The position numbers and the translations under genes are program-made. The notes beneath the pieces are model-generated. The model searched no databases. It had not been told where the DNA came from and worked only from the letters and a program-made list of their open reading frames with translations. DNA of 51,864 bases. Origin: an uncultured Gammaproteobacteria bacterium (GTDB lineage Bacteria; Patescibacteriota; Patescibacteriia; Patescibacteriales; UBA12465). This document shows, piece after piece, positions 3,180 to 40,530 of the stretch. The number at the start of each line of letters is the position of its first letter. The first letter of the stretch is position 1. The stretch spans positions 1 to 51,864 of the forward strand of contig CAZXZR010000002.1 in the NCBI GenBank assembly GCA_964645545.1, given 5' to 3'.

Positions 3180-5612
3180 TTAAAAATCTCTTAATTTTGC
3201 GCCAAACTTCTTGGCTAAATGCGCCATTAACTCATTTTGCACCTTATCAACTTCGGCCGCCGTCAAAGTTCTATCCACGGCCTGATAAGTCAAGTGGAAA
3301 GCCAAGCTTTTTTTGCCGGCCGGCAATTTTTCTCCCTGATAAAAGTCAAATATCTCTATATCTTTTAGTAAAGGGCTAAAGGCGCTTAATTCCACCTCAA
3401 TATCATTATACAATATTTCCGCGTCCACGACAAAAGCCAAGTCGCGCCTGACCGCCGGATATTTCGCCGACTCCCGCAAACGAAATGGCGGTGCATTCAA
3501 AATCAAATTAACCAAAAGACTAAAATTTATTTCCGCCACTGCCACCGCCTTTTTTAAGTTTAAATTAAGACTGGCCGTCGGGTTGACTAAGGCAATTAAG
3601 CCGATTTCTTTATGACCCGCTTTTATTTTGGCCACGGCTTTTTTATCGGCCCAAGCCGGCATCTCCTCCGCTAAGGAAAATCCCCAAGGCGATGCCGCAG
3701 GAGCGAAAGTCAGCCAAAGATTATTAATCAGGCCTTTTAAGCGAGAAAATAGGCCGCCGTTTGCGCCCGCCAAAACCAAACCCAAACGCTTTTCCTGGTA
3801 AGGCAGAACCTCTTCGCCGGCGGCCTCTTTCTTTATTTCTCCCGGCGCTTGAAAAAAGACGCGGCCGATCTCAAAGAAACCTAATTCCGCCGCCTTGGCT
3901 TGATTATTTTTAATATTATTCAACAAACCGGGAACCAATGACTGGCGTAAAAAACTTTGCGTATCGGCTAAAGGATTGGCCAGTCTTAAATGATGAAAAA
4001 AATCAATGTCTAATTTTTTCAACTGCTCGGCGCCGACGAAAGAATAATTATAAACTTCGCTTAAAGCGTATTTTAAAGCCAAGACCGTCTTGACTCGCCT
4101 TTCCAAGCGTTTCCCCCAATCAATTGCCGGCAGAGTCAAGGGCATCACCGGCAAACGGGAAGTAACGCGATCGTAGCCATAAAGCCTTAGTATCTCTTCG
4201 GCTAAATCTTCCTTGGCGACGACGTCTTTATTGGCCCGCCAAGAAGGGACGGTGACTTGCATCAAGCCCGTCGGCGCCAACGCGACCTTGAAGCCCAATT
4301 TTTCCAAAAGGGCGCTGGCCGCGGAAGCGGGAATTTCCTGACCAATTTTTCGCGCCAACCATCGGGCGGTCAAATCAATGACCACTGGCCGCGGAGTCGC
4401 TTGGTTAACATCAATTAAGGCACTGATGATCTTCATTTCCGGACAAAGTTTTTCCAATAAAGTCAGAAAACGCTTGAGACCGACTGGCGCCAGTTCCGGA
4501 TCCAAAGATTTTTCAAAACGCATGGAGGCTTCCGTGCGCAAATTTAATTTCTGCGCCGTGCGCCTAACGGCCGGAGCGGAAAAATTGGCCGCCTCCAAAA
4601 CTAAAGCGGTCGTAGTCGGAAAAATTTCGCTGGCTCGGCCGCCCATGACGCCGGCAATGGCTAAAACTTTTTTCCCGTCGGTGATAACCAGGTCATTTTC
4701 GTCCAATTCCCGTTCCTCGTCGTCCAAAGTTTCCAAACTTTCGTTTTTTTTCGCCCGCCGCACGATGAGGCTTTCCGCCCGAGCGGCGTCAAAAGCATGC
4801 AAGGGCTGACCGCACTCTAACATCACGTAATTGGTTAAATCAACGATATTGTTTATCGGCCGTTGACCGACGGCGATCAATCTTTCCTGAAGCCAGGCCG
4901 GCGATTCACCGACACTGATATTTTCCACTTTGACCGCCAAATAACGAGGGCAGAGCTCCTTGTCTTCCACTTTTACCACTAATTTGTTCTCCTTAGCGCT
5001 TAAAAAGGCTAATGACTTTTTAAAAAACTTATCGTAGGCTTTGAGCGGCCGGTCAAAAATAGCCGCTAATTCGCGGGCCAGGCCATAATGGCTCCAGAGA
5101 TCAGGCCGGTTGGACAGAGACTTGTTATCCACTTCCAAAACAGTATCATCGGTGCCTAAATAATCGGCCAAAGACTGACCGACTTTGGCTCGCGCCTCTA
5201 AAACCAAAATGCCTTCATGGCTCGCGCCCAGTCCGAGCTCGTCGGCGGCGCAAATCATGCCGGCTGATTTCTCGCCGCGGATTTCCGCGGCTTTAATTTC
5301 TAAACCGTTCGCCAAAACCGCGCCCGCCAAAGCCACGGCGACCAATTGCCCCCGGGCGACGTTCGGCGCGCCGCAAACGATGGCTAAAACCGAATCTTTA
5401 ATATCCACTTTGGTTAAAAACAGCTTATCGGCGCGCGGATGTTTTTTTACTTCCAAAACCTTGCCCACGACCACGTTTTTAAAACGCTCCGCCGGCCGAC
5501 TAAAACTTTCCACTTCCACGGTATGGGCCGTCAACTGATCCGCGATTTCCGCGGCTTTTGTTTTCGCCGGCAATTTAACGAAGTCTTTAAGCCAATTTAA
5601 AGATATATACAT
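3180..5612 (-). CDS. pheT: Phenylalanine--tRNA ligase beta subunit
   Basis: The 818-aa ORF is 3180..5636. The typical PheT N-terminus MYISLNWLKDF starts at the ATG at 5612, which leaves 4 nt after the pheS stop. Contains the tRNA-binding, B3/4, B5 and C-terminal FDX-ACB-like regions. Confidence 0.92.
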   Translation of the reverse strand: MYISLNWLKDFVKLPAKTKAAEIADQLTAHTVEVESFSRPAERFKNVVVGKVLEVKKHPRADKLFLTKVDIKDSVLAIVCGAPNVARGQLVAVALAGAVLANGLEIKAAEIRGEKSAGMICAADELGLGASHEGILVLEARAKVGQSLADYLGTDDTVLEVDNKSLSNRPDLWSHYGLARELAAIFDRPLKAYDKFFKKSLAFLSAKENKLVVKVEDKELCPRYLAVKVENISVGESPAWLQERLIAVGQRPINNIVDLTNYVMLECGQPLHAFDAARAESLIVRRAKKNESLETLDDEERELDENDLVITDGKKVLAIAGVMGGRASEIFPTTTALVLEAANFSAPAVRRTAQKLNLRTEASMRFEKSLDPELAPVGLKRFLTLLEKLCPEMKIISALIDVNQATPRPVVIDLTARWLARKIGQEIPASAASALLEKLGFKVALAPTGLMQVTVPSWRANKDVVAKEDLAEEILRLYGYDRVTSRLPVMPLTLPAIDWGKRLERRVKTVLALKYALSEVYNYSFVGAEQLKKLDIDFFHHLRLANPLADTQSFLRQSLVPGLLNNIKNNQAKAAELGFFEIGRVFFQAPGEIKKEAAGEEVLPYQEKRLGLVLAGANGGLFSRLKGLINNLWLTFAPAASPWGFSLAEEMPAWADKKAVAKIKAGHKEIGLIALVNPTASLNLNLKKAVAVAEINFSLLVNLILNAPPFRLRESAKYPAVRRDLAFVVDAEILYNDIEVELSAFSPLLKDIEIFDFYQGEKLPAGKKSLAFHLTYQAVDRTLTAAEVDKVQNELMAHLAKKFGAKLRDF

Positions 5613-5616
5613 ATGT

Positions 5617-6651
5617 TTACCAAGAAAATTGTTCAAGAAACTTTAAATCCCCGGCCATAAACAAGCGGACGTCGGCAATATTATATTTAAGCATAGCCAA
5701 ACGATTAAGGCCGAAGCCGAAAGCCAGACCGGAATAGACTTCCGGATCTAGGCCGCCAGCTCTTAAAACATGAGGATGAACTAAGCCGGCGCCGGCGATT
5801 TCCAGCCAACCGCTGTACTTGCAGACGCGACAGCCTTTGCCCTCGCACAAAAAGCAGGAATACTCGGCGTTATTACCCGGCTCCACGAAAGGATAGTATT
5901 TGGGGCGCAGACGCATACGCGAATCCGGACCGAATAAACTTTTCCCGACGATTTCCAAAAGGCTTTTTAAGTGGGCAAAGCTAATTTCCTTGTCCACCAC
6001 CAAACCTTCTAAATGATAAAAAGTATGTTCATGGCGGGCATCGGTGGCTTCACTGCGAAAACAGCGGCCGGGAATGATAACGCGCAAAGGCGCGCCATAT
6101 TTTTGCATGGCCCTGACCTGCACCGGCGAAGTGTGGGTTCTTAAAAGCAAGTCGTATTGACCCGCCCTATTCTTCGCTTCCACGTAAAAAGTATCCTGCA
6201 TGTCGCGGGCCGGATGATAAGGCGGGATGTTTAAGGCCGTGAAATTATAATAATCGCTTTCTAATTCCGGTCCGTCGGCGATAATAAAACCCAAGGAAGC
6301 GAACAAATCTTGTAATTCGTTTTCCACAATGGTTAAGGGATTTAAATGTCCCTCTTTAACCGACTGGCCCGGCAAACTAACGTCTATAATCTCATTTTTA
6401 CGACCGCGGCCAAGCAAGCTCTCGCTTAAAGCGCTGAATTTATGCCCAAGCTCCTCTTTTATTTTATTGGCCAATTCGCCTGCCTCTTTTTTCGCATTCT
6501 CGGGCAAATCTTTCAGGCCGCGCATAAGCTGATTAAGTTCACCTTTGCGCGACAGGTATTTAAGTTCTACAGCACGTAACTGTTCGCTGTCTTTGATCTG
6601 GGCCAATTGCTTAAGGAATTTTTCCTTGAGAGTTTGTAATTTGTTTTTCAT
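5617..6651 (-). CDS. pheS: Phenylalanine--tRNA ligase alpha subunit
   Basis: 344 aa with class II motifs, including YHPARDMQDTFY and GLAFGFGLNRLAM. Confidence 0.95.
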   Translation of the reverse strand: MKNKLQTLKEKFLKQLAQIKDSEQLRAVELKYLSRKGELNQLMRGLKDLPENAKKEAGELANKIKEELGHKFSALSESLLGRGRKNEIIDVSLPGQSVKEGHLNPLTIVENELQDLFASLGFIIADGPELESDYYNFTALNIPPYHPARDMQDTFYVEAKNRAGQYDLLLRTHTSPVQVRAMQKYGAPLRVIIPGRCFRSEATDARHEHTFYHLEGLVVDKEISFAHLKSLLEIVGKSLFGPDSRMRLRPKYYPFVEPGNNAEYSCFLCEGKGCRVCKYSGWLEIAGAGLVHPHVLRAGGLDPEVYSGLAFGFGLNRLAMLKYNIADVRLFMAGDLKFLEQFSW

Positions 6652-6655
6652 ATAA

Positions 6656-7036
6656 TTAACGGCTTTTTTTATAACTGATTGAAAATAATTCCAAAATCGC
6701 GAAAATTATTACCAACAGCGAGAGGTTAAGCCAAGTAAAAAGATTCTGTGATTTTAGAAACAAAAGAAAAATGATAAATAAAGAAAAAAGGAAAGATTGG
6801 CGAAAAGCGAGTTTGACCGAGTTGAAAGCCAGTTCTTTTCTTAAAGCGACAAAACGGATCAAAAAACCGACAATGGCGGCTAAACCGCTTAAAGCCAAAG
6901 ATAAGGCCAAGTAAAACAAAACGAAACCAAGCCAATTGGTGGCCGTCGGATCCACCAAACCGACAACAAAAGCGAATATCCCCCAACAAACGAGGGTTAA
7001 AACGCTCATCACGACTAAATAGCTCCTTAAAGTCAT
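6656..7036 (-). CDS. Small polytopic membrane protein (about 4 TM), unknown function
   Basis: 126 aa with four hydrophobic segments. Its start overlaps the valS stop as ATGA (7033-7036), suggesting translational coupling. Confidence 0.55.
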   Translation of the reverse strand: MTLRSYLVVMSVLTLVCWGIFAFVVGLVDPTATNWLGFVLFYLALSLALSGLAAIVGFLIRFVALRKELAFNSVKLAFRQSFLFSLFIIFLLFLKSQNLFTWLNLSLLVIIFAILELFSISYKKSR

Positions 7037-9702
7037 AACGCCTTGATCATTTTAATTATTTTTTCTAATTCTTGCTGATAAGCGGCTAATTTTTCTTTTT
7101 CCCGAGCCACGATTTTCGCCGGCGCTTTGGCGATAAATTCAGCCTGGGCCAGTTTTTGCTTCTGTAAAATGATTAGCTTCTCTAAATTCGCGCTTTCTTT
7201 AAGTAAACGATCTTTTTCTTCTTTAACATCTATTAAATTTCTTTCTCCGGAAAGATAAATTTCTATCGCGCCGACTACGAGCATAATATCGGCGGTAATT
7301 TTTGGCCGTTTCTCCAAAAATTCAATACTCTTTAGACCGGTTCGCAAAGATATTATTAGTTCGCGCTGATCTATTATATTGTCCGGCTCGCCTTTTGGTA
7401 AATAAATTTGTGCTTTTAAAAGTTTTTTCGGGTCTATTTTATGCTCTTGCCGAGCGTTTCTAATTTTTTCTATTATCGCAATCGTTTTAGTAATAATCCG
7501 CCATTCCGTCCGATTCTTCGGTCTTTCGCTCTGTTCAAATTTCGGCCATCTTTCCACTAATAATAAAGTTCCATTATTCTTTTCATTACTCTCATCAAGC
7601 CTCTGCCAAATAGTTTCAGTAATAAAAGGAGTAAAGGGATGCCAAAGAATAAGTAAATTTTTTAATAAATAAATTAAAATTTCTTCTTTATTTTTTTCAA
7701 TTTTAGCCACTTCTAAATACCAATCGGCTAATTTATTCCAAGTAAAATCCTCTAAATCTTCTGCGGCTAAAGAAAAATTAAAATTATTCAAATTACTCGC
7801 GGTTCTAAAAATCAACTGGGACATTTCTTCTAAAATCCACTTGTCAAAAAATGTTTTCCCGACTGGTTCTTTGCCCGCCGTCCTTTTAAAATACTCCTCA
7901 CCGGAGAGGCTAAGAATAAAGCGAGAAATGTTCCACAATTTATTAATAAAATTTCGCTTGGCCGCCACTTTTTTTTCATAGAAGCGGGCATCGTTGCCCG
8001 GCGTGTAACCGGCCAGAAGCGATAGGCGGGCGGCGTCGGCGCCGTACTTACTAACCATATCGGTCAGATCAATGCCGTTGCCTTTGGATTTAGACATCTT
8101 TTTACCTTTTTCGTCCAAAATCGTGCCGTGCAAATAAACGTTTTCAAAAGGGATTTCGCCCAAAGCGAAAAACGACATCATGACCATGCGCGACACCCAA
8201 AGAGTCAAAATTTCATAACCGGTTTCTAAAACTTGCGTAGGGTGGAAGCGGGCCAAATCGCCCATCTTCTCCCCATTCTTGTAATTTTCCGGCCAACCGA
8301 GGGTGGAAAAAGTCCACATACCGGAAGAAAACCAAGTATCCAAGGTATCGGGATCCTGCTGCCAGCCCGCTCCGGCTGGCGGCGTCAAGCCGATATAAGT
8401 TTCTTCGCCTTGGTACCAAACGGGAATTTGATGGCCGAACCAAATCTGCCGGGAAATACACCAATCATGGAGATCTTCTAGCCAAGCCAAATAACGCTTC
8501 TGAAAACGTCCGGGAATAAATTTAACGGCGCCACTCCTAGCCGCCTCCCCGGCTTTCTCTTTTAAAGATTTATTGCCCAAATGCGCCAGTTTCTTGTCCA
8601 CGGCGACGAACCACTGCTTGGAAGGCAAAGGTTCAATGGCCGTGCCGCAACGGTAGCAAACCGCCAAATTGTTATTAATCTCCTCTTCTTTAATAAGGAG
8701 GCCGCGTTTTTTTAATTTCGCCACCAATTTTTCACGCGCTTTAGCCGCCGTCAAACCGGCATAAAGTCCGAAGCCCGTCTGGATACAGCCGGTCTCGTTA
8801 ATCACTTTTATAACCGGCAATTTGTTGGCTTGCGCCATTTGCCAGTCAGTTAAAGAGTGCGCCGGCGTCACCCCCAGGGCGCCCGTGCCGTAACTCATAT
8901 CCACCCTTCTCTCGGCGATAATCTTTACGGACAAGCTTTGGCCGCAAAAATCAAACTGGAATTGCCGGCCGATATATTTTTTATAGCGTTCGTCTTTGGG
9001 ATTAACGGCCACGGCCGTATCCCCAAGCTTGGTTTCCGGCCGGGTAGTGGCGATGGCGAAGGGAAAATCGGGATTGTATTTAAAAATATAAAATTTGGCT
9101 TTTTGCTCTTTGTGCTCCACTTCATCGTCGGCCAAAGTAGAATGACAGCGTGGGCACCAATTGACGATGCGTTCGCCGCGATAAATCGCACCCGCCTCAT
9201 ACATGTCTTTAAACATGGTCGCCACAGCCAACTGCCGCTTTTCATCCAAAGTGAAAGCCAAGCGCGACCAATCTAAAGAAGCGCCCAACTGGCGAATTTG
9301 GCCTAAAATCGTCGTCCGCGTCTCTTTTAAAAACTTCCAGACTTCGGCCAAAAATGCTTCCCGACCCAAATCTTGCCGCGTCCGACCCTTTTCTTTCAAA
9401 AGTTTTTTCTCCACCACGTTTTGCGTGGCGATAGCGGCGTGGTCCGTGCCCGGCAACCACAAGGCCCGCTCGCCCAATAAGCGGTGATAACGAATTAACA
9501 GGTCTTCTATTGCTATTGTGGCGGCATGACCCATGTGCAATTTGTCGGTAACGTTGGGCGGCGGCAAAATAATGGTGTAAGTTTTGGCCGTTTCTGGTAA
9601 ATCTAAATTATCCGGGTTAAAATACCCGGATGCCTCCCATAATTTATAGATTTTATCCTCGTTTTCCAGGGGATTATAGGTCTTTTCCAATTCTTGTGGC
9701 AT
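7033..9702 (-). CDS. valS: Valine--tRNA ligase (full length, Cys-cluster type, with C-terminal coiled-coil)
   Basis: 889 aa. HIGH region PPPNVTDKLHMGHA, PGTDHAAIATQ, KMSKSKGN. Cys motifs CPRCHS and CYRCGT. Long C-terminal coiled-coil ending EKLAAYQQELEKIIKMIKAL. Confidence 0.95.
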   Translation of the reverse strand: MPQELEKTYNPLENEDKIYKLWEASGYFNPDNLDLPETAKTYTIILPPPNVTDKLHMGHAATIAIEDLLIRYHRLLGERALWLPGTDHAAIATQNVVEKKLLKEKGRTRQDLGREAFLAEVWKFLKETRTTILGQIRQLGASLDWSRLAFTLDEKRQLAVATMFKDMYEAGAIYRGERIVNWCPRCHSTLADDEVEHKEQKAKFYIFKYNPDFPFAIATTRPETKLGDTAVAVNPKDERYKKYIGRQFQFDFCGQSLSVKIIAERRVDMSYGTGALGVTPAHSLTDWQMAQANKLPVIKVINETGCIQTGFGLYAGLTAAKAREKLVAKLKKRGLLIKEEEINNNLAVCYRCGTAIEPLPSKQWFVAVDKKLAHLGNKSLKEKAGEAARSGAVKFIPGRFQKRYLAWLEDLHDWCISRQIWFGHQIPVWYQGEETYIGLTPPAGAGWQQDPDTLDTWFSSGMWTFSTLGWPENYKNGEKMGDLARFHPTQVLETGYEILTLWVSRMVMMSFFALGEIPFENVYLHGTILDEKGKKMSKSKGNGIDLTDMVSKYGADAARLSLLAGYTPGNDARFYEKKVAAKRNFINKLWNISRFILSLSGEEYFKRTAGKEPVGKTFFDKWILEEMSQLIFRTASNLNNFNFSLAAEDLEDFTWNKLADWYLEVAKIEKNKEEILIYLLKNLLILWHPFTPFITETIWQRLDESNEKNNGTLLLVERWPKFEQSERPKNRTEWRIITKTIAIIEKIRNARQEHKIDPKKLLKAQIYLPKGEPDNIIDQRELIISLRTGLKSIEFLEKRPKITADIMLVVGAIEIYLSGERNLIDVKEEKDRLLKESANLEKLIILQKQKLAQAEFIAKAPAKIVAREKEKLAAYQQELEKIIKMIKAL

Positions 9703-10976: not shown

Positions 10977-11050
10977 GGGCATATAGCTCAGTTGGTTAGA
11001 GCACCGCTCTTATAAAGCGGGGGTCGATGGTTCAAGTCCATCTATGCCCA
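10977..11050 (+). tRNA. tRNA-Ile (anticodon UAU)
   Basis: Cloverleaf folded by hand: acceptor GGGCATA/TATGCCC, D arm GCTC-AGTTGGTTA-GAGC, anticodon stem CCGCT/AGCGG with loop CTTATAA, T arm GATGG-TTCAAGT-CCATC, discriminator A. No encoded CCA. Confidence 0.85.
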
Positions 11051-11066
11051 CGGACAATTTAATATC

Positions 11067-11143
11067 GGGCTCGTAGCTCAGCTGGTTAGAGCGTTACGTT
11101 GACATCGTAAAGGTCACAGGTTCGAGTCCTGCCGGGCCCACCA
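11067..11143 (+). tRNA. tRNA-Val (anticodon GAC), CCA encoded
   Basis: Acceptor GGGCTCG/CGGGCCC (one G-U pair), anticodon stem TTACG/CGTAA with loop TTGACAT, T arm ACAGG-TTCGAGT-CCTGC (one A-C mismatch), then ACCA. Confidence 0.85.
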
Positions 11144-11149
11144 ATACAA

Positions 11150-11468
11150 AACTGAACGGCTTTTTTGAAGCCAATTCGTGGGCGGCACGCAGTGCCGCCC
11201 ATTGATTTTGAGCGTAATTTATCCATTTTTCCATCGGTTCGAGCCAATCATTCTGCTTTTGTTCAATCCGTGCCATTTTCTCCTCCAGCGACTTCTTTTC
11301 GGACAGCAAAACCGCTTTTTGTTCTCGGTAGGTTTCTTTTTCAATATCTTGTTCCAGATAGCCTTCAAGAAGTCGCTGAAGTTTGGTCGTAATAATTTTG
11401 ATTTTCTCGCTGGCTTCTTGAACAAAATATGAGAAAAGATGGTAGTGTCTTTCGAGACGCAAAATAAA
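11150..11468 (-). pseudogene. Remnant of a serine-recombinase gene (C-terminal coiled-coil part only, no start codon)
   Basis: The segment KLQRLLEGYLEQDIEKETYREQKAVLLSEKKSLEEKMARIEQKQNDWLEPMEKWINYAQ resembles the C-terminal coiled-coil region of large serine recombinases. This is recollection of the family, not a search result. The listed ORF 11094..11567 also runs antisense through tRNA-Val and through a terminator hairpin, so only the middle part is meaningful. Confidence 0.45.
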
Positions 11469-11499
11469 ATGGGGCATACCAACGATGTTGGCATGCCCC
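11461..11499 (-). terminator. Intrinsic terminator 7 nt after the valS-2 stop (also has a T-run on the plus strand)
   Basis: 13-bp stem with one mismatch, ggggcataccaac-gat-gttggcatgcccc (11471-11499). On the minus strand it is followed by attttatttt. Confidence 0.6.
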
Positions 11500-11505
11500 T
11501 CTTTT

Positions 11506-13677
11506 TTATCCTTCCGGCCACCACTCTGTAGCAAGCAGCGACTTACTCTGAAGCAACTCCCAAACATGCTCCGTTATGAACGGCATAAACGGGTGCAAGA
11601 GTTTGAGTGACTGCTCTAAGCAATAAAGAAGAAGACGTTCGGTGTTTTCGGCCAAAGCTTCATCCTTCAACTGTGCTTTGCTGGCTTCAATGTATTTATC
11701 CGCCAGTTCATGCCACACAAATTGATAGATGTCTTGTGCCGCTTCGTTGAAGCGGAAATTTTCGAGATAACGAGTGATCTCTTTTATAACCGCCCTCAAC
11801 TGCTCCAGAATATGCTGATCTGCAGTAGTCACGGCCATAATCGGCTTATCCTTCAACGCGCGAGTTCGATCATCCTTCGCCAAGGTATTGGATATCACAA
11901 ATCTCGAGATATTCCATATTTTGTTGGCAAAGTGTTTCATCCCCTTCACCCGATCCTCGCTAAAGACCATATCAGTGCCACCCGAGTTTGCGTACACGAG
12001 CGCAAACCGCAACGCGTCCGTACCATATTTACTCATCACGGCAAGCGGGTCAATGATATTGCCTTTACTCTTACTCATCTTTTGTCGTTCGGCATCCCTA
12101 GCAAGGCCATGGAGATACACCGTTCTAAACGGTATTTGTCCTAAAAGGCTGCATGACATAAGAATCATCCGCGCAACCCAGAAGAACAAGATATCGTACC
12201 CTGTTTCCATTACTGTGTTGGGATGATAGAGCTTTAGGTCAGCGGTATCTTCTGGCCAGCCGAGTGTCGAGAACGTCCAGAGACCAGAGGAGAACCACGT
12301 GTCCAGAGTATCAGGATCCTGATGCCATCCCTCACCACGAGGAGCAACCAAACCGCAGTACATTTCTTCGCCACGATACCACACCGGAATTTGATGGCCA
12401 AAAACAATTTGCCGCGAGATGCACCAGTCGCGCAGATTGTCTATCCAGTGGAAGTATGTTTTGGCGAAGTGAACCGGGATAATTTTGATTTGTCCTGACT
12501 TAACCACATGACGCATCAACTGTTTCAAAGTCGTCTGCTCCCCGGCGTCAATGCCTGTGATTTCAGAGTAAGTTAATTGAAACGGTTTGTTCACCGCGAT
12601 AAACCACTGTTCGCGAATTTGGGGTTCAATAATTCCACCTCCGCGACTGTTTGTAGCGATACGGTGAGTGTAATTTACTTCAACTCGATCGAGCAGCCCC
12701 TTCTTTCGTAGTTTCTCGACGATGGCAACCCTAGCTTTACTGATATGCTGTCCACTGAATTCTCCGGCAATCGGCAGTAGACATCCTCGCAAATCAATCA
12801 CTGGCTCAATATCCAAACCGTGTCTTCTTGCGATTTCGTAGTCCGTAGCGTCATGCGCCGGCGTAATAGTCATAACACCGGTTCCAAACTGCATGTCTAT
12901 GGCTTCATCCTTGATGACGGTTGCGGTAACGGGGCCATTGATCCACTCGACTTCGATTTTCTGCCCGTGTTCGTAGGTAGAATATCGGGGATCGTGCGGA
13001 TGCATCACCACGTACTTGTCTCCGAACTTTGTTTCCGGACGGGCGGTAGCGATTATGAACGGGCCGTACTTAAAGTGGTAGAAACTTGTGGTTTCTTCTT
13101 TCCACTCAATCTCGTCGTCAGACACATTCGTCTGAAGCTTTGGGTCCCAATTCACAAGGCGCGAACCTCGATAAATAAGACCCATCTCAAAGAGACGAAC
13201 GAACGCTGTACGTACGGCCAATGTCCGCTTTTCGTCAAGTGTGTAAGCTAGACGGCTCCAATCAACACTCGCTCCAAGCTGCTTGAGCTGATTGAGAATA
13301 GTTGCCTGTGAAGTCGCGGCATACTGCTCCACAAGTCTCAAAAACTCCTCCCGGGAAAAATCTCGACGGGTCTTCTTCTCTTTTTTGTAGAGCTCTGCCT
13401 CAACTTTAGCTTGGGTCGCGATAGCCGCATGGTCCGTTCCAGGAATGTAGAGAGTTCGAAACCCCTGCATCCTACGGAAACGGACAAGAATATCCTGTAT
13501 GGCGACAGTAAGTGCATGACCAAGGTGTAAGACGCCGGTCACGTTCGCCGGCGGGAACACCATCGCAAATGATTCGCCCTTTTGTTGTTGAGGAGTAAAA
13601 ATATTTGCCCTCTCCCATTTTTCATTTATACTACTCTCAATAATGGTGGGGTTGTAGGTTTTTTGTATTTCTTGCAT
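11506..13677 (-). CDS. valS: Second, divergent valine--tRNA ligase paralogue lacking the C-terminal coiled-coil domain
   Basis: 723 aa. PPANVTGVLHLGHA, PGTDHAAIATQ, KMSKSKGN and the anticodon-binding helical domain are present. The Cys motifs of copy 1 are replaced by WDPKLQT and ATNSRGGG. It ends at EWWPEG. GGAGGA lies 8 nt upstream of the ATG. Confidence 0.85.
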   Translation of the reverse strand: MQEIQKTYNPTIIESSINEKWERANIFTPQQQKGESFAMVFPPANVTGVLHLGHALTVAIQDILVRFRRMQGFRTLYIPGTDHAAIATQAKVEAELYKKEKKTRRDFSREEFLRLVEQYAATSQATILNQLKQLGASVDWSRLAYTLDEKRTLAVRTAFVRLFEMGLIYRGSRLVNWDPKLQTNVSDDEIEWKEETTSFYHFKYGPFIIATARPETKFGDKYVVMHPHDPRYSTYEHGQKIEVEWINGPVTATVIKDEAIDMQFGTGVMTITPAHDATDYEIARRHGLDIEPVIDLRGCLLPIAGEFSGQHISKARVAIVEKLRKKGLLDRVEVNYTHRIATNSRGGGIIEPQIREQWFIAVNKPFQLTYSEITGIDAGEQTTLKQLMRHVVKSGQIKIIPVHFAKTYFHWIDNLRDWCISRQIVFGHQIPVWYRGEEMYCGLVAPRGEGWHQDPDTLDTWFSSGLWTFSTLGWPEDTADLKLYHPNTVMETGYDILFFWVARMILMSCSLLGQIPFRTVYLHGLARDAERQKMSKSKGNIIDPLAVMSKYGTDALRFALVYANSGGTDMVFSEDRVKGMKHFANKIWNISRFVISNTLAKDDRTRALKDKPIMAVTTADQHILEQLRAVIKEITRYLENFRFNEAAQDIYQFVWHELADKYIEASKAQLKDEALAENTERLLLYCLEQSLKLLHPFMPFITEHVWELLQSKSLLATEWWPEG

Positions 13678-14157
13678 AACTCATTTCCTCCATTTTACAA
13701 TTTTCAAAGAACAATTTCAAGCCCCGAAACATTCGAAGCTATAAATCGTAATACTATATCAATCAATTTTTTGCAGGCCCCGACCAGCATTTGGCTCACG
13801 GGCAAAAAGTGGAAAGGGGTTGAAGGGGGAAGAAATCTTTTTACCCGCGAGCCAAAGCGAAGCCCGCCGCCATATTCGTTAGAACAGAGCCGAGCAGAAA
13901 ATTTTGCTTTTCCTTAACTGAAAAATTTTTTAGGCACGCACAAATCAAAAAATGTAAAGCAAAATTTTCTGCGCGGTAGTGCCGCTTTGCGGCACGGCGG
14001 CGGGCATTGGATTTTTCAGGAATTTTTGATAAAATAAGTTCGAGTGGAATTGTATAAATACACTGAAAAATCGCCGTTTTCCCAGAAGACGGCCCTTTTT
14101 ATTTACATTTCTTCCAAAAATTGGTAAATTATAGAGAGAAGAAAAAAAATAATTTTT

Positions 14158-14586
14158 ATGCTTTTCCCCCAAAAAACCGCCAAAAGCCGCGGGCGCGGCT
14201 TGGTTAAAGAAAAAAACGAGGCCGCTATAAGCGAATGGCTGGATTACGAGGAACCGGAAACCGAGGGCCAACTGGCTATTGACGTTTACCAAGGCGACAA
14301 AAAAATTATCGTCAAATCCACCATCGCCGGCGTCAAGCCGGAAGATTTAAAAATATCTCTCCACCATGATTTATTGACCATTAAAGGCAAGCGGGAAATT
14401 AAGGAAGAAATCAAAGAAGAAGATTATTTATACCGCGAATGTTATTGGGGCTCGTTTTCCCGCGCCATTATTCTGCCGGCCGAGGTGGATAACAAGCGCG
14501 TGGAAGCGGAGCTGGAAAACGGCGTTTTAACCATCACGCTTTATAAAGTTTCGCCCGGAAAAATCGCCGTCAAGGTTAAAGACTAA
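14158..14586 (+). CDS. Hsp20/alpha-crystallin family small heat-shock protein
   Basis: 142 aa. Alpha-crystallin domain: LAIDVYQGDKKIIVKSTIAGVKPEDLKISLHHDLLTIKGKRE ... GSFSRAIILPAEVDNKRVEAELENGVLTITL. Confidence 0.9.
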   Translation: MLFPQKTAKSRGRGLVKEKNEAAISEWLDYEEPETEGQLAIDVYQGDKKIIVKSTIAGVKPEDLKISLHHDLLTIKGKREIKEEIKEEDYLYRECYWGSFSRAIILPAEVDNKRVEAELENGVLTITLYKVSPGKIAVKVKD

Positions 14587-39894: not shown

Positions 39895-40530
39895 TCACCA
39901 GAAATGGCTCTGGCAGCCTTTGTTAAAGTTCAATTTAAGTGAATTAAACAAAGTCGCGGCGATCTTGAGGTCGGGGGTTAAGCCGTTCATGCCGTAGCCG
40001 TAGTGTCTCCGCTTCGAGTTATAGTAATTGAGCCAGAAATTTAGTTTGAGCTGCAGCTGGGCGTCGGAATCCTGGAAAGAGCAGTATTTCCAGAAGAATT
40101 CGCGTTTAATGGTCTTGTGGAATCTCTCGATCTTGCCGTTCTGCTCCGGGGTGTAGGGTTCGTTGATAATGACCTCAAGGCCGAGAGACGCGCAGAAATT
40201 GATAAACTTCCCGGATTTGTAGCGATTATCCGCCCTGATCCGCCGGATCCGGAGTGGACTCTTAGCGACCAGATATGACAAACAGCCGGTGCGCGAATGG
40301 GGCAAGAAGGTAATGACGCCTTTCTTGGCTAAAAATGGCGAAGCGATTTTCGGCATCCAGAACTTGGATCCGCAAAATCGCGAGCATGTGGAATTTGTCG
40401 GCCGGCTGGAAGTCCCGGAAATGGTCGTGGAAGATTGTTCGGAGAGGTACTCGCGGTTGGAAAAGATGCTCTTGGAAGCCTGATGCTTATGATCCTTGCC
40501 GCCCGCAAGCGCGGCGGCGGTGAAAAACAA
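39895..40530 (-). pseudogene. Decayed DDE transposase remnant (rve integrase core, IS481/IS3-like), N-terminally truncated
   Basis: The C-terminal half is a clear rve domain: NEPYTPEQNGKIERFHKTIKREFF ... YNSKRRHYGYGMNGLTP. The region that should carry the first two catalytic Asp residues reads FWMPKI / FLPHSRTG. There is no HTH domain. Confidence 0.65.

Follow-up and report, generated by a model that had tools for sequence, protein, structure and literature searches.

Two valS genes at one locus

The window analysed here, the whole stretch of 51,864 nucleotides (nt) of contig CAZXZR010000002.1 (assembly GCA_964645545.1), comes from a groundwater-type, Falkowbacteria-like member of the Patescibacteria with a tiny genome and contains two valS genes for valyl-tRNA synthetase (ValRS), a full-length one (copy 1) and a short one (copy 2). 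The initial annotation had placed them 1.8 kb apart, and a spacing of 1803 nt was obtained. The two proteins shared 45% identity over 740 columns in BLASTP. It was found that copy 2 belonged to another ValRS clade than copy 1, originated from a Portnoybacteria-like donor and lay as an intact gene within an insertion of ~2.9 kb (about 11144–14058) at the 3' end of tRNA-Val(GAC). We consider it likely that copy 2, a xenologue in a tRNA-Val island, is a probably active, redundant second ValRS. The features of the locus are listed in Table 1.

With 99.96–100% identity, the arrangement of the window recurred in six other assemblies, which derive from different samples and different sources, and the copy 2 protein was identical in all six. 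Both island junctions, with host genes on each side, were spanned in three of the six (MEGAHIT/ENA and JGI). Because the sequences were so nearly identical, a polymorphism-based selection test carried no signal. No contig with an empty site, that is without the island, was found. In three short contigs (L189, L190 and L191), assembled from the same samples or from sister samples, the sequence began 30–80 nt upstream of hsp20, which corresponded to window positions ~14078–14128 at the right junction of the island. Strain heterogeneity at this junction could account for these breaks.

Table 1. Positions of the features at the valS locus of the window
Feature	Position	Strand	Description
valS, copy 1	7033–9702	minus	889 aa, full-length; Zn-type Cys clusters; C-terminal coiled-coil arm
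tRNA-Ile(UAU)	10977–11051	plus	native; ARAGORN and Rfam; same tRNA pair in L012
tRNA-Val(GAC)	11067–11143	plus	insertion attached at its 3' end, where the left boundary lies
Large serine recombinase stub	11145–11447	minus	reduced to the coiled-coil part after the zinc ribbon
Radical-SAM fossil	11424–11465	plus	last 13 codons and stop of the convergent gene of the donor; NMRKDGSVFRDAK, then stop
Intrinsic terminator of copy 2	11471–11499	minus	13-bp stem and U-tract; conserved with donor-type loci
valS, copy 2	11506–13677	minus	723 aa, short type; Rossmann core, CP1 editing domain, anticodon-binding helix bundle
Upstream region of copy 2	13678–13851	minus	Shine-Dalgarno sequence and promoter-like TTGAAA-17-TAAAAT; collinear with the donor-type locus
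Structured non-coding element	13881–14014	.	16-bp AT-rich hairpin and GC hairpin (GTGCCGC...GCGGCAC); inverted repeat I2
Right boundary	14058–14131	plus	native sequence resumes; terminator-like hairpin 14073–14093, then hsp20 promoter block; crossover about ±40 nt
hsp20	14158–14586	plus	native flank; Pfam HSP20; 68% identical to the L012 orthologue

Domain composition and intactness of copy 2

With the NCBIfam models of bacterial valS (TIGR00422 and NF004349), copy 2 reached 873 bits (cut-off 704) and 823 bits (cut-off 612), respectively, and the coverage of the profiles stopped at 696/860 and 713/863. The valS equivalog scores of copy 1 were 954 and 872 bits. Copy 2 was aligned to residues 2–707 of the 862 residues of Thermus thermophilus (Tth) ValRS. 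In Pfam, Anticodon_1 (PF08264) was matched over positions 1–106 of 148, and PF10458 (Val_tRNA-synt_C) was matched in copy 1 only (residues 825–887). The AlphaFold (AF2) model of copy 2 had a predicted local distance difference test score (pLDDT) of 89.4 and a predicted template modelling score (pTM) of 0.85, and the helices of the anticodon-binding bundle (574–708) were modelled at high pLDDT. Its best match in the Protein Data Bank (PDB) was 1GAX_A (TMq of 0.87 and TMt of 0.73).

The early end of copy 2 at EWWPEG, described initially as ~165 aa short of copy 1, was found opposite ERWPKF of copy 1, which made the protein 166 aa shorter, with the stop 2 residues past the WP motif. Nothing homologous to residues 723–889 of copy 1 was present downstream of copy 2 or elsewhere in the island. 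Judged by these alignments, copy 2 is lacking everything after the helix bundle, namely the anticodon-stem-binding domain and the coiled-coil arm. In the ValRS structures of Fukai et al., the former reportedly touches the anticodon stem and the latter the elbow formed by the D and T loops.

The class I motifs of copy 2 were present (HIGH as HLGH, and KMSKS). The Val-pocket motif PPxNVTG read PPANVTG, a P-to-A change common to its subclade. In the CP1 editing domain, TxRPET was found as TARPET, and T272, D276 and D279 (Tth numbering) were kept. The editing-site position K270 was T in 33/33 short sequences and G in 19/19 sequences of the copy 1 clade, and copy 1 and its clade carried S at D276. 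The contrast in Cys clusters pointed out earlier (NWCPRCHS and CYRCGT in copy 1, NWDPKLQT and ATNSRGGG in copy 2) was reproduced, although it is less telling than it had seemed, because the ValRS of E. coli and Paenibacillus are also without these clusters. Copy 2 showed 0 deviations at 229 positions that were at least 95% conserved in its clade, and likewise none at the 141 positions that are conserved in all of the ValRS sampled. The suggestion of a decaying gene was contradicted by these counts and by an open reading frame (ORF) without frameshift or stop, and that of an editing-only enzyme by the intact HIGH and KMSKS motifs. A 157-aa ORF overlapping the end of copy 2 was considered as a frameshifted ValRS C-terminus and rejected, since it derives from the recombinase and extends through the tRNA.

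Copy 2 was also equipped with expression signals. The strong Shine-Dalgarno (SD) sequence noted before was found as GGAGGA, 8 nt before the ATG. The 13-bp terminator hairpin was likewise recovered, starting 6 nt past the stop and not 7 nt as first given; its centroid energy was –24.6 kcal/mol (z = –4.9), and 0/200 shuffled sequences folded equally well. The –10 hexamer of the promoter-like TTGAAA-17-TAAAAT abuts the SD sequence, and the true start site is therefore uncertain.

The short ValRS clade

ValRS of 713–756 aa that end at the same WP motif were found to be abundant in Patescibacteria (Portnoy-, Yanofsky-, Sung-, Andersen- and Doudnabacteria). Besides the window, 160 loci were inspected within ±10 kb of each match; counts for the Genome Taxonomy Database (GTDB) refer to the 80 best species-representative loci. 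Of these 80, 69 encoded a short form that stopped 0–28 aa past the WP motif, as copy 2 does, 10 encoded a long form and 1 ran into the end of its contig. In neighbour-joining (NJ) trees, the 101 short ValRS that were sampled all fell into one clade, with bootstrap values of 100/100 in the tree of 57 taxa and 39/40 in that of 136 taxa. Its sister group was the long ValRS of Moran- and Magasanikbacteria-like metagenome-assembled genomes (MAGs; 40/40). Copy 2 was paired with P0002 at 100/100, and the clade of copy 1 was separate from the short clade at 100/100 and 40/40. Long ValRS resembling copy 1 were abundant in Falkowbacteria-like genomes, as abundant as the short forms elsewhere.

Among the 65 GTDB loci with enough flank, hsp20 was located 0.7–1.9 kb downstream of valS on the same strand in 56. 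The long-type sisters showed the order valS-hsp20-vanW, and one short-type locus the order vanW-hsp20-DHH-valS. The short form occupies the ancestral valS neighbourhood, which argues that it is the resident enzyme and was truncated once, in place. The anticodon-stem-binding domain and the coiled-coil arm would thus have been lost a single time, deep within Patescibacteria. The missing coiled-coil had been taken for a peculiarity of copy 2; this view could not be upheld, since the short forms are monophyletic and mostly found in the valS-hsp20 neighbourhood. Short forms were the norm in the donor lineage, but not in the host lineage.

None of the 160 other loci had a second ValRS within 10 kb, and the lists of the best 120 homologues of copy 1 and the best 120 of copy 2 shared no contig but the window. 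No description of such a minimal form was found in the literature on short ValRS in the candidate phyla radiation (CPR). The main novelty lies in this clade-wide minimal ValRS architecture, which apparently has not been described before, and in its coexistence here with a canonical enzyme.

In the longer members of the short clade, the extra length came from domains inserted in the catalytic core, not from a C-terminal arm. Many short-clade ValRS had whole domains inserted near WY...DTLDTWFSS, as observed in P0061 and P0095 (His_Phos_1), in P0073 and P0090 (ASCH-like), and in P0014, P0041, P0045, P0088 and P0094. Some of the insertions add Cys pairs, and all of these proteins end at the WP motif. 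The valS-hsp20 linkage, often with vanW, was also seen across very divergent Patescibacteria with long and short forms (loci L021–L183), which points to an ancient conserved neighbourhood. In two MAGs, tRNA-Val(CAC) was located 120 nt downstream of the short valS on the same strand (L045 12280–12352 and L049 12279–12351). In these loci, where the short valS was 63% identical to copy 2, the enzyme thus stands beside its cognate tRNA.

Copy 1 as the native gene

The valS-orf126-pheS-pheT operon, which begins with copy 1, lies near the replication origin, and the latter was marked by rpmH-rnpA-yidD-yidC, dnaA, dnaN and a turn of the GC skew. Among the contigs with the best copy 1 homologues was L012, a locus in a Falkowbacteria MAG. 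The relatives including L012 showed synteny over >20 kb in the order PBP-dnaN-dnaA-rnpA-yidC-vanW-hsp20-[tRNA-Val, tRNA-Ile]-DHH-valS-orf126-pheS-pheT-...-topA. The 13 orthologue pairs of the window and L012 were 51–77% identical. Copy 1 is native, because its identity to the L012 orthologue (68%) is typical of that of its neighbour genes; its best match overall was at 69%. A second ValRS was absent from the syntenic contigs carrying the best copy 1 homologues, L012 included.

Copy 1 had 9 deviations at 312 clade-invariant positions (clade range 0–12). An odd P546L change was observed in its GNxIDP motif just after KMSKS (KGNGIDLTD), where Pro is found in nearly all sampled ValRS. The gene orf126 at 6656–7036 (minus strand), which precedes pheS, encodes 126 aa without a Pfam match and overlaps the copy 1 stop by 4 nt; it is conserved at the equivalent position in relatives with 77% identity.

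The insertion at tRNA-Val(GAC)

Syntenic relatives, the two P0122 contigs as well as L012, were without the insertion containing copy 2 at this site. In L012, tRNA-Val was separated from the hsp20 promoter block by ~95 nt, compared with ~2.9 kb extra in the window. When aligned with L012, which has no insertion, and with L101/L102, where the recombinase is intact, the window diverged directly after ...GGGCCCAC, which placed the left end within a few nt. The CCA of tRNA-Val(GAC) was encoded only in the element-carrying copies. At the right side, a 31-nt block of the hsp20 promoter (14101–14131) was identical to L012.

The recombinase remnant that had been noted next to tRNA-Val was substantiated by homology to full-length recombinases. 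It lacks ~370 N-terminal residues, and a further ~50 residues are missing internally when it is compared with P0242, its closest homologue, which sits on a 943-bp contig. An exhaustive HMMER search gave 532 homologues, the longer of which carry Resolvase, Recombinase and Zn_ribbon_recom domains. The stub itself gave nothing significant in Pfam and a weak integrase match in PHROGs (E = 0.008). A full-length recombinase of 529 aa, P0313, is encoded in L101–L103 in the orientation of the stub, and its gene overlaps tRNA-Val(GAC) at the 3' end. The GC hairpin at 11178–11202 is shared with the element end of L101/L102 despite differences between the tRNAs. The recombinase family integrates at tRNA-Val(GAC), as judged from the overlap of P0313 with this tRNA and the conserved hairpin at the element end.

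Recombinase ORFs were called through the antisense strand of tRNA-Val, at 11094–11567 (minus strand) of the window and at 380–1969 of L101. The C-terminal peptide QWxALRxAH coincides with the GC hairpin at 11178–11202 and therefore may reflect a DNA or RNA element rather than protein; this region may be, for example, a replacement terminator for the tRNA.

The repeat-rich non-coding gap reported upstream of copy 2 was also seen by us, with two long inverted repeats in 13678–14157. The structured element lies within ~200 nt (13852–14058), and its sole detected homologue was at L048 13566–13691 in a Paceibacterota MAG, adjoining tRNA-Phe. Between the window and this homologue, the AT-rich hairpin shows compensatory changes. 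A search of the island with Rfam returned tRNAs only, and no family was matched by the structured element.

Donor and codon usage of copy 2

A block of 2.4 kb (~11426–13851) was collinear with Portnoybacteria-like chromosomes (L001–L004 and L104). At the amino-acid level, copy 2 was 85% identical to P0002 (Portnoybacteria), 88% to L104 and 86% to L105. The upstream region of copy 2 showed 74–87% nucleotide identity to L001 6489–6646. On the other side, window 11426–11507 and L001 8825–8906 shared 81.7% nucleotide identity, and the three-way alignment and the translation of L001 agreed on the radical-SAM fossil. The homology to the donor broke after the radical-SAM tail, against the recombinase stub. 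The nearest relatives of copy 2 all have radical-SAM/GT2/APH neighbours.

The GC content of copy 2 (0.480) and its GC content at third codon positions (GC3, 0.522) were uninformative on horizontal gene transfer (HGT) when set against the window mean of 0.478. The codon style, judged by eye to differ from that of the neighbours, did so by relative synonymous codon usage (RSCU), although GC3 equals that of the host. The RSCU distance of copy 2 to host genes was 1.05, compared with 0.53–0.83 for host genes of at least 1.5 kb; the resampling null was 0.54 ± 0.11, and the distance of copy 2 to its Portnoybacteria orthologue was 0.63. The host uses GGC at 64%, copy 2 at 27% and the donor orthologue at 36%; the corresponding values for ACA were 4%, 24% and 22%.

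A phage or plasmid origin was considered and rejected: the best tblastn matches, at 42–43%, were to ordinary bacterial ValRS, and nothing was found in IMG/VR. Genes of a mobility type were seen near two close relatives of copy 2. One relative lies in a 621-kb 'Falkowbacteria' contig near PrgI/TraC/TraG-like genes (L014 17.2–22.2 kb), and on the Portnoybacteria contig L001 an intein-containing tyrosine integrase and a DUF559 gene (4165–5936) were found near the other.

Origin and role of the second ValRS

The proposal in the initial annotation of a xenologous, possibly mobile-element-borne gene was supported by membership in the other ValRS clade, absence of the insertion in relatives, a tRNA-Val site used by recombinases, and donor-like codons and flanks. 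Copy 2 would have been captured from a Portnoybacteria-like patescibacterium and fixed in the Falkowbacteria-like host. The insertion was most likely delivered by a large-serine-recombinase element targeting tRNA-Val(GAC), although we only infer that the two travelled together. The mobile machinery would then have decayed, reducing the recombinase to a 100-codon stub and leaving the ValRS gene intact. Driven by its own imported promoter, SD sequence and terminator, copy 2 presumably aminoacylates and edits, and it might recognise tRNA-Val by the anticodon, through the helix bundle, and by the acceptor end alone. It would be redundant with the native long enzyme, either as a back-up or as a possible intermediate in xenologous displacement. 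Most paralogues of aminoacyl-tRNA synthetases (aaRS) arise by HGT, and ValRS is among the least often duplicated aaRS (PMC5388404). Patescibacteria exchange genes by HGT mainly with one another, and translation genes are enriched among those transferred (PMC12455944). The present case fits these surveys.

Several observations weigh against this account of a transferred housekeeping enzyme. The trees were built by neighbour joining with few outgroups, and the description of the short clade as resident, sole valS is argued from positional orthology. The subclade of copy 2 is not beside hsp20 and has a radical-SAM gene downstream instead; the hsp20 of the window, upstream of copy 2 and divergent, is the own gene of the host. 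The terminal branch of copy 2 was slightly longer than that of its sister P0002. No att direct repeats above chance and no clear right-end site were found at the island. Serine recombinases need just a 2-bp core. The recombinase family was found together with a short valS only here, and in 0/160 other short-valS loci, and therefore the ValRS block and the recombinase could have arrived separately.

Copy 2 might also be a specialised second enzyme, with inhibitor or toxin resistance, stress activity, preference for a tRNA-Val isoacceptor or altered editing. Two ValRS would then divide labour in one cell, and the short one would be kept for tolerance or for another isoacceptor. It might, for instance, tolerate a toxin or inhibitor acting via the C-terminal arm or tRNA-Val with damaged or hypomodified elbows, or serve a different tRNA-Val isoacceptor. 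In line with this, copy 2 is fully intact with its own expression signals, the two enzymes differ at the K270 equivalent (T vs G) and at D276 (kept in copy 2, S in copy 1), and copy 1 carries the unusual P546L. Moreover, ValRS is among the aaRS duplicated least often, and where a second aaRS has been kept, it frequently fulfils a role of this kind (PMC5388404, PMC9437257). However, every feature of copy 2 is common to its whole clade, where the enzyme is apparently housekeeping. The neighbours are tRNAs, the recombinase stub, hsp20 and DHH, and neither a biosynthetic cluster nor a toxin or regulator gene is among them; the island holds just the stub and non-coding DNA besides copy 2, and no natural selective agent was identified. 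For the suggested resistance to an inhibitor or toxin, no evidence in either direction was found, and a specialised role is regarded as unlikely.

Still less probable is a non-functional hitch-hiker, a gene carried in by a now dead mobile element that would be silent or decaying but without visible lesions so far. The island is decaying, as seen from the internal deletion in the recombinase stub and the cut radical-SAM tail, and the codon usage of copy 2 fits the host poorly. The –10 hexamer abutting the SD sequence makes the mapped promoter doubtful, and the terminal branch of copy 2 is slightly above that of P0002. On the other hand, the 723-codon ORF remained intact, with 0/229 changes and with catalytic and editing motifs present, while its island neighbours were deleted. 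The terminator and the upstream region were preserved (74–87% nucleotide identity), and the protein was identical in the six further assemblies.

An ancient vertical paralogue, with both forms ancestral and the short one lost in relatives, is effectively refuted. Both clades are patescibacterial and were grouped together against five outgroups. Nevertheless, the best match of copy 2 (85–88%) was far above the 51–77% of host genes to their nearest relatives, its codon usage was donor-like, fossils of the donor flank were present, it lies at a recombinase target site, and no second ValRS was found within 10 kb in the 160 other loci. An assembly chimera of two organisms joined at the tRNA genes, which are classic points for such errors, would fit the breaks of the three short contigs near the right junction, but three of the six independent assemblies practically exclude it, as each of them continues across both junctions into host genes at 99.96–100% identity.

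Comparison with known systems

Like the canonical bacterial ValRS of T. thermophilus (1GAX/1IVS), copy 2 has the class Ia Rossmann core, CP1 editing domain and helix bundle, at 41–43% sequence identity and a TMq of 0.87. Unlike it, copy 2 ends at the equivalent of Tth 707/862, without the stem-binding domain and the arm. Archaeal-type or alternative ValRS (PRK13208 and alt_ValS, NF000540) have NCBIfam models of ~800–830 aa, and copy 2 is ~80–100 aa shorter. It scored 500 bits against a cut-off of 738 and 311 bits against 900, respectively, which made it clearly bacterial in type.

As with other aaRS acquired by HGT (plasmid-borne IleRS2/MupA, and second TrpRS, SerRS or ThrRS; PMC9437257, PMC5388404), copy 2 is a divergent copy linked to a mobile element. 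In contrast to MupA/IleRS2, no inhibitor, producer cluster or resistance phenotype is known for it or linked to it, and the form of its donor is apparently just the housekeeping enzyme of a neighbouring lineage. The island resembles those of tRNA-targeting large serine recombinases, in which the recombinase reads toward and overlaps the 3' end of the tRNA and the element supplies that end; it is likewise absent from syntenic relatives and foreign in codon usage. It differs from them in that only a 100-codon recombinase stub is left, with the Resolvase, Recombinase and Zn-ribbon domains gone, and in that its cargo is a raw chromosomal fragment with the tail of a neighbouring gene of the donor.

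ValRS is among the most stable and least duplicated aaRS (PMC5388404) and patescibacterial genomes are very small, so that the presence in one of them of a second ValRS, xenologous and intact, gives an unusually clean snapshot of an essential translation gene moving between lineages, possibly midway through xenologous displacement. Otherwise, it represents ordinary biology, a housekeeping gene transferred horizontally on a decayed island. If the short forms are the sole ValRS of their genomes, the C-terminal tRNA-binding apparatus would be dispensable in vivo. This would bear on tRNA-Val recognition, on the design of minimal enzymes, and on annotation and completeness checks based on length or domains. 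The genome of the window offers a natural side-by-side test case of short and long ValRS.

Other observations in the window

The tRNA-Ile beside tRNA-Val has the anticodon UAU, which was conserved in the Falkowbacteria relative (L012 8595–8669). AUA is decoded by a lysidine-modified CAU tRNA in most bacteria. Further downstream, an ORF with an rve_3 integrase core (39895–40530, minus strand) adjoins a block with high GC3 at 41.7–48.3 kb (0.64–0.77, compared with ~0.45–0.63 in genes up to 37.6 kb). This block encodes a pseudouridine synthase, a polysaccharide flippase, NusA and an H+-pyrophosphatase, and it may be a second foreign region.

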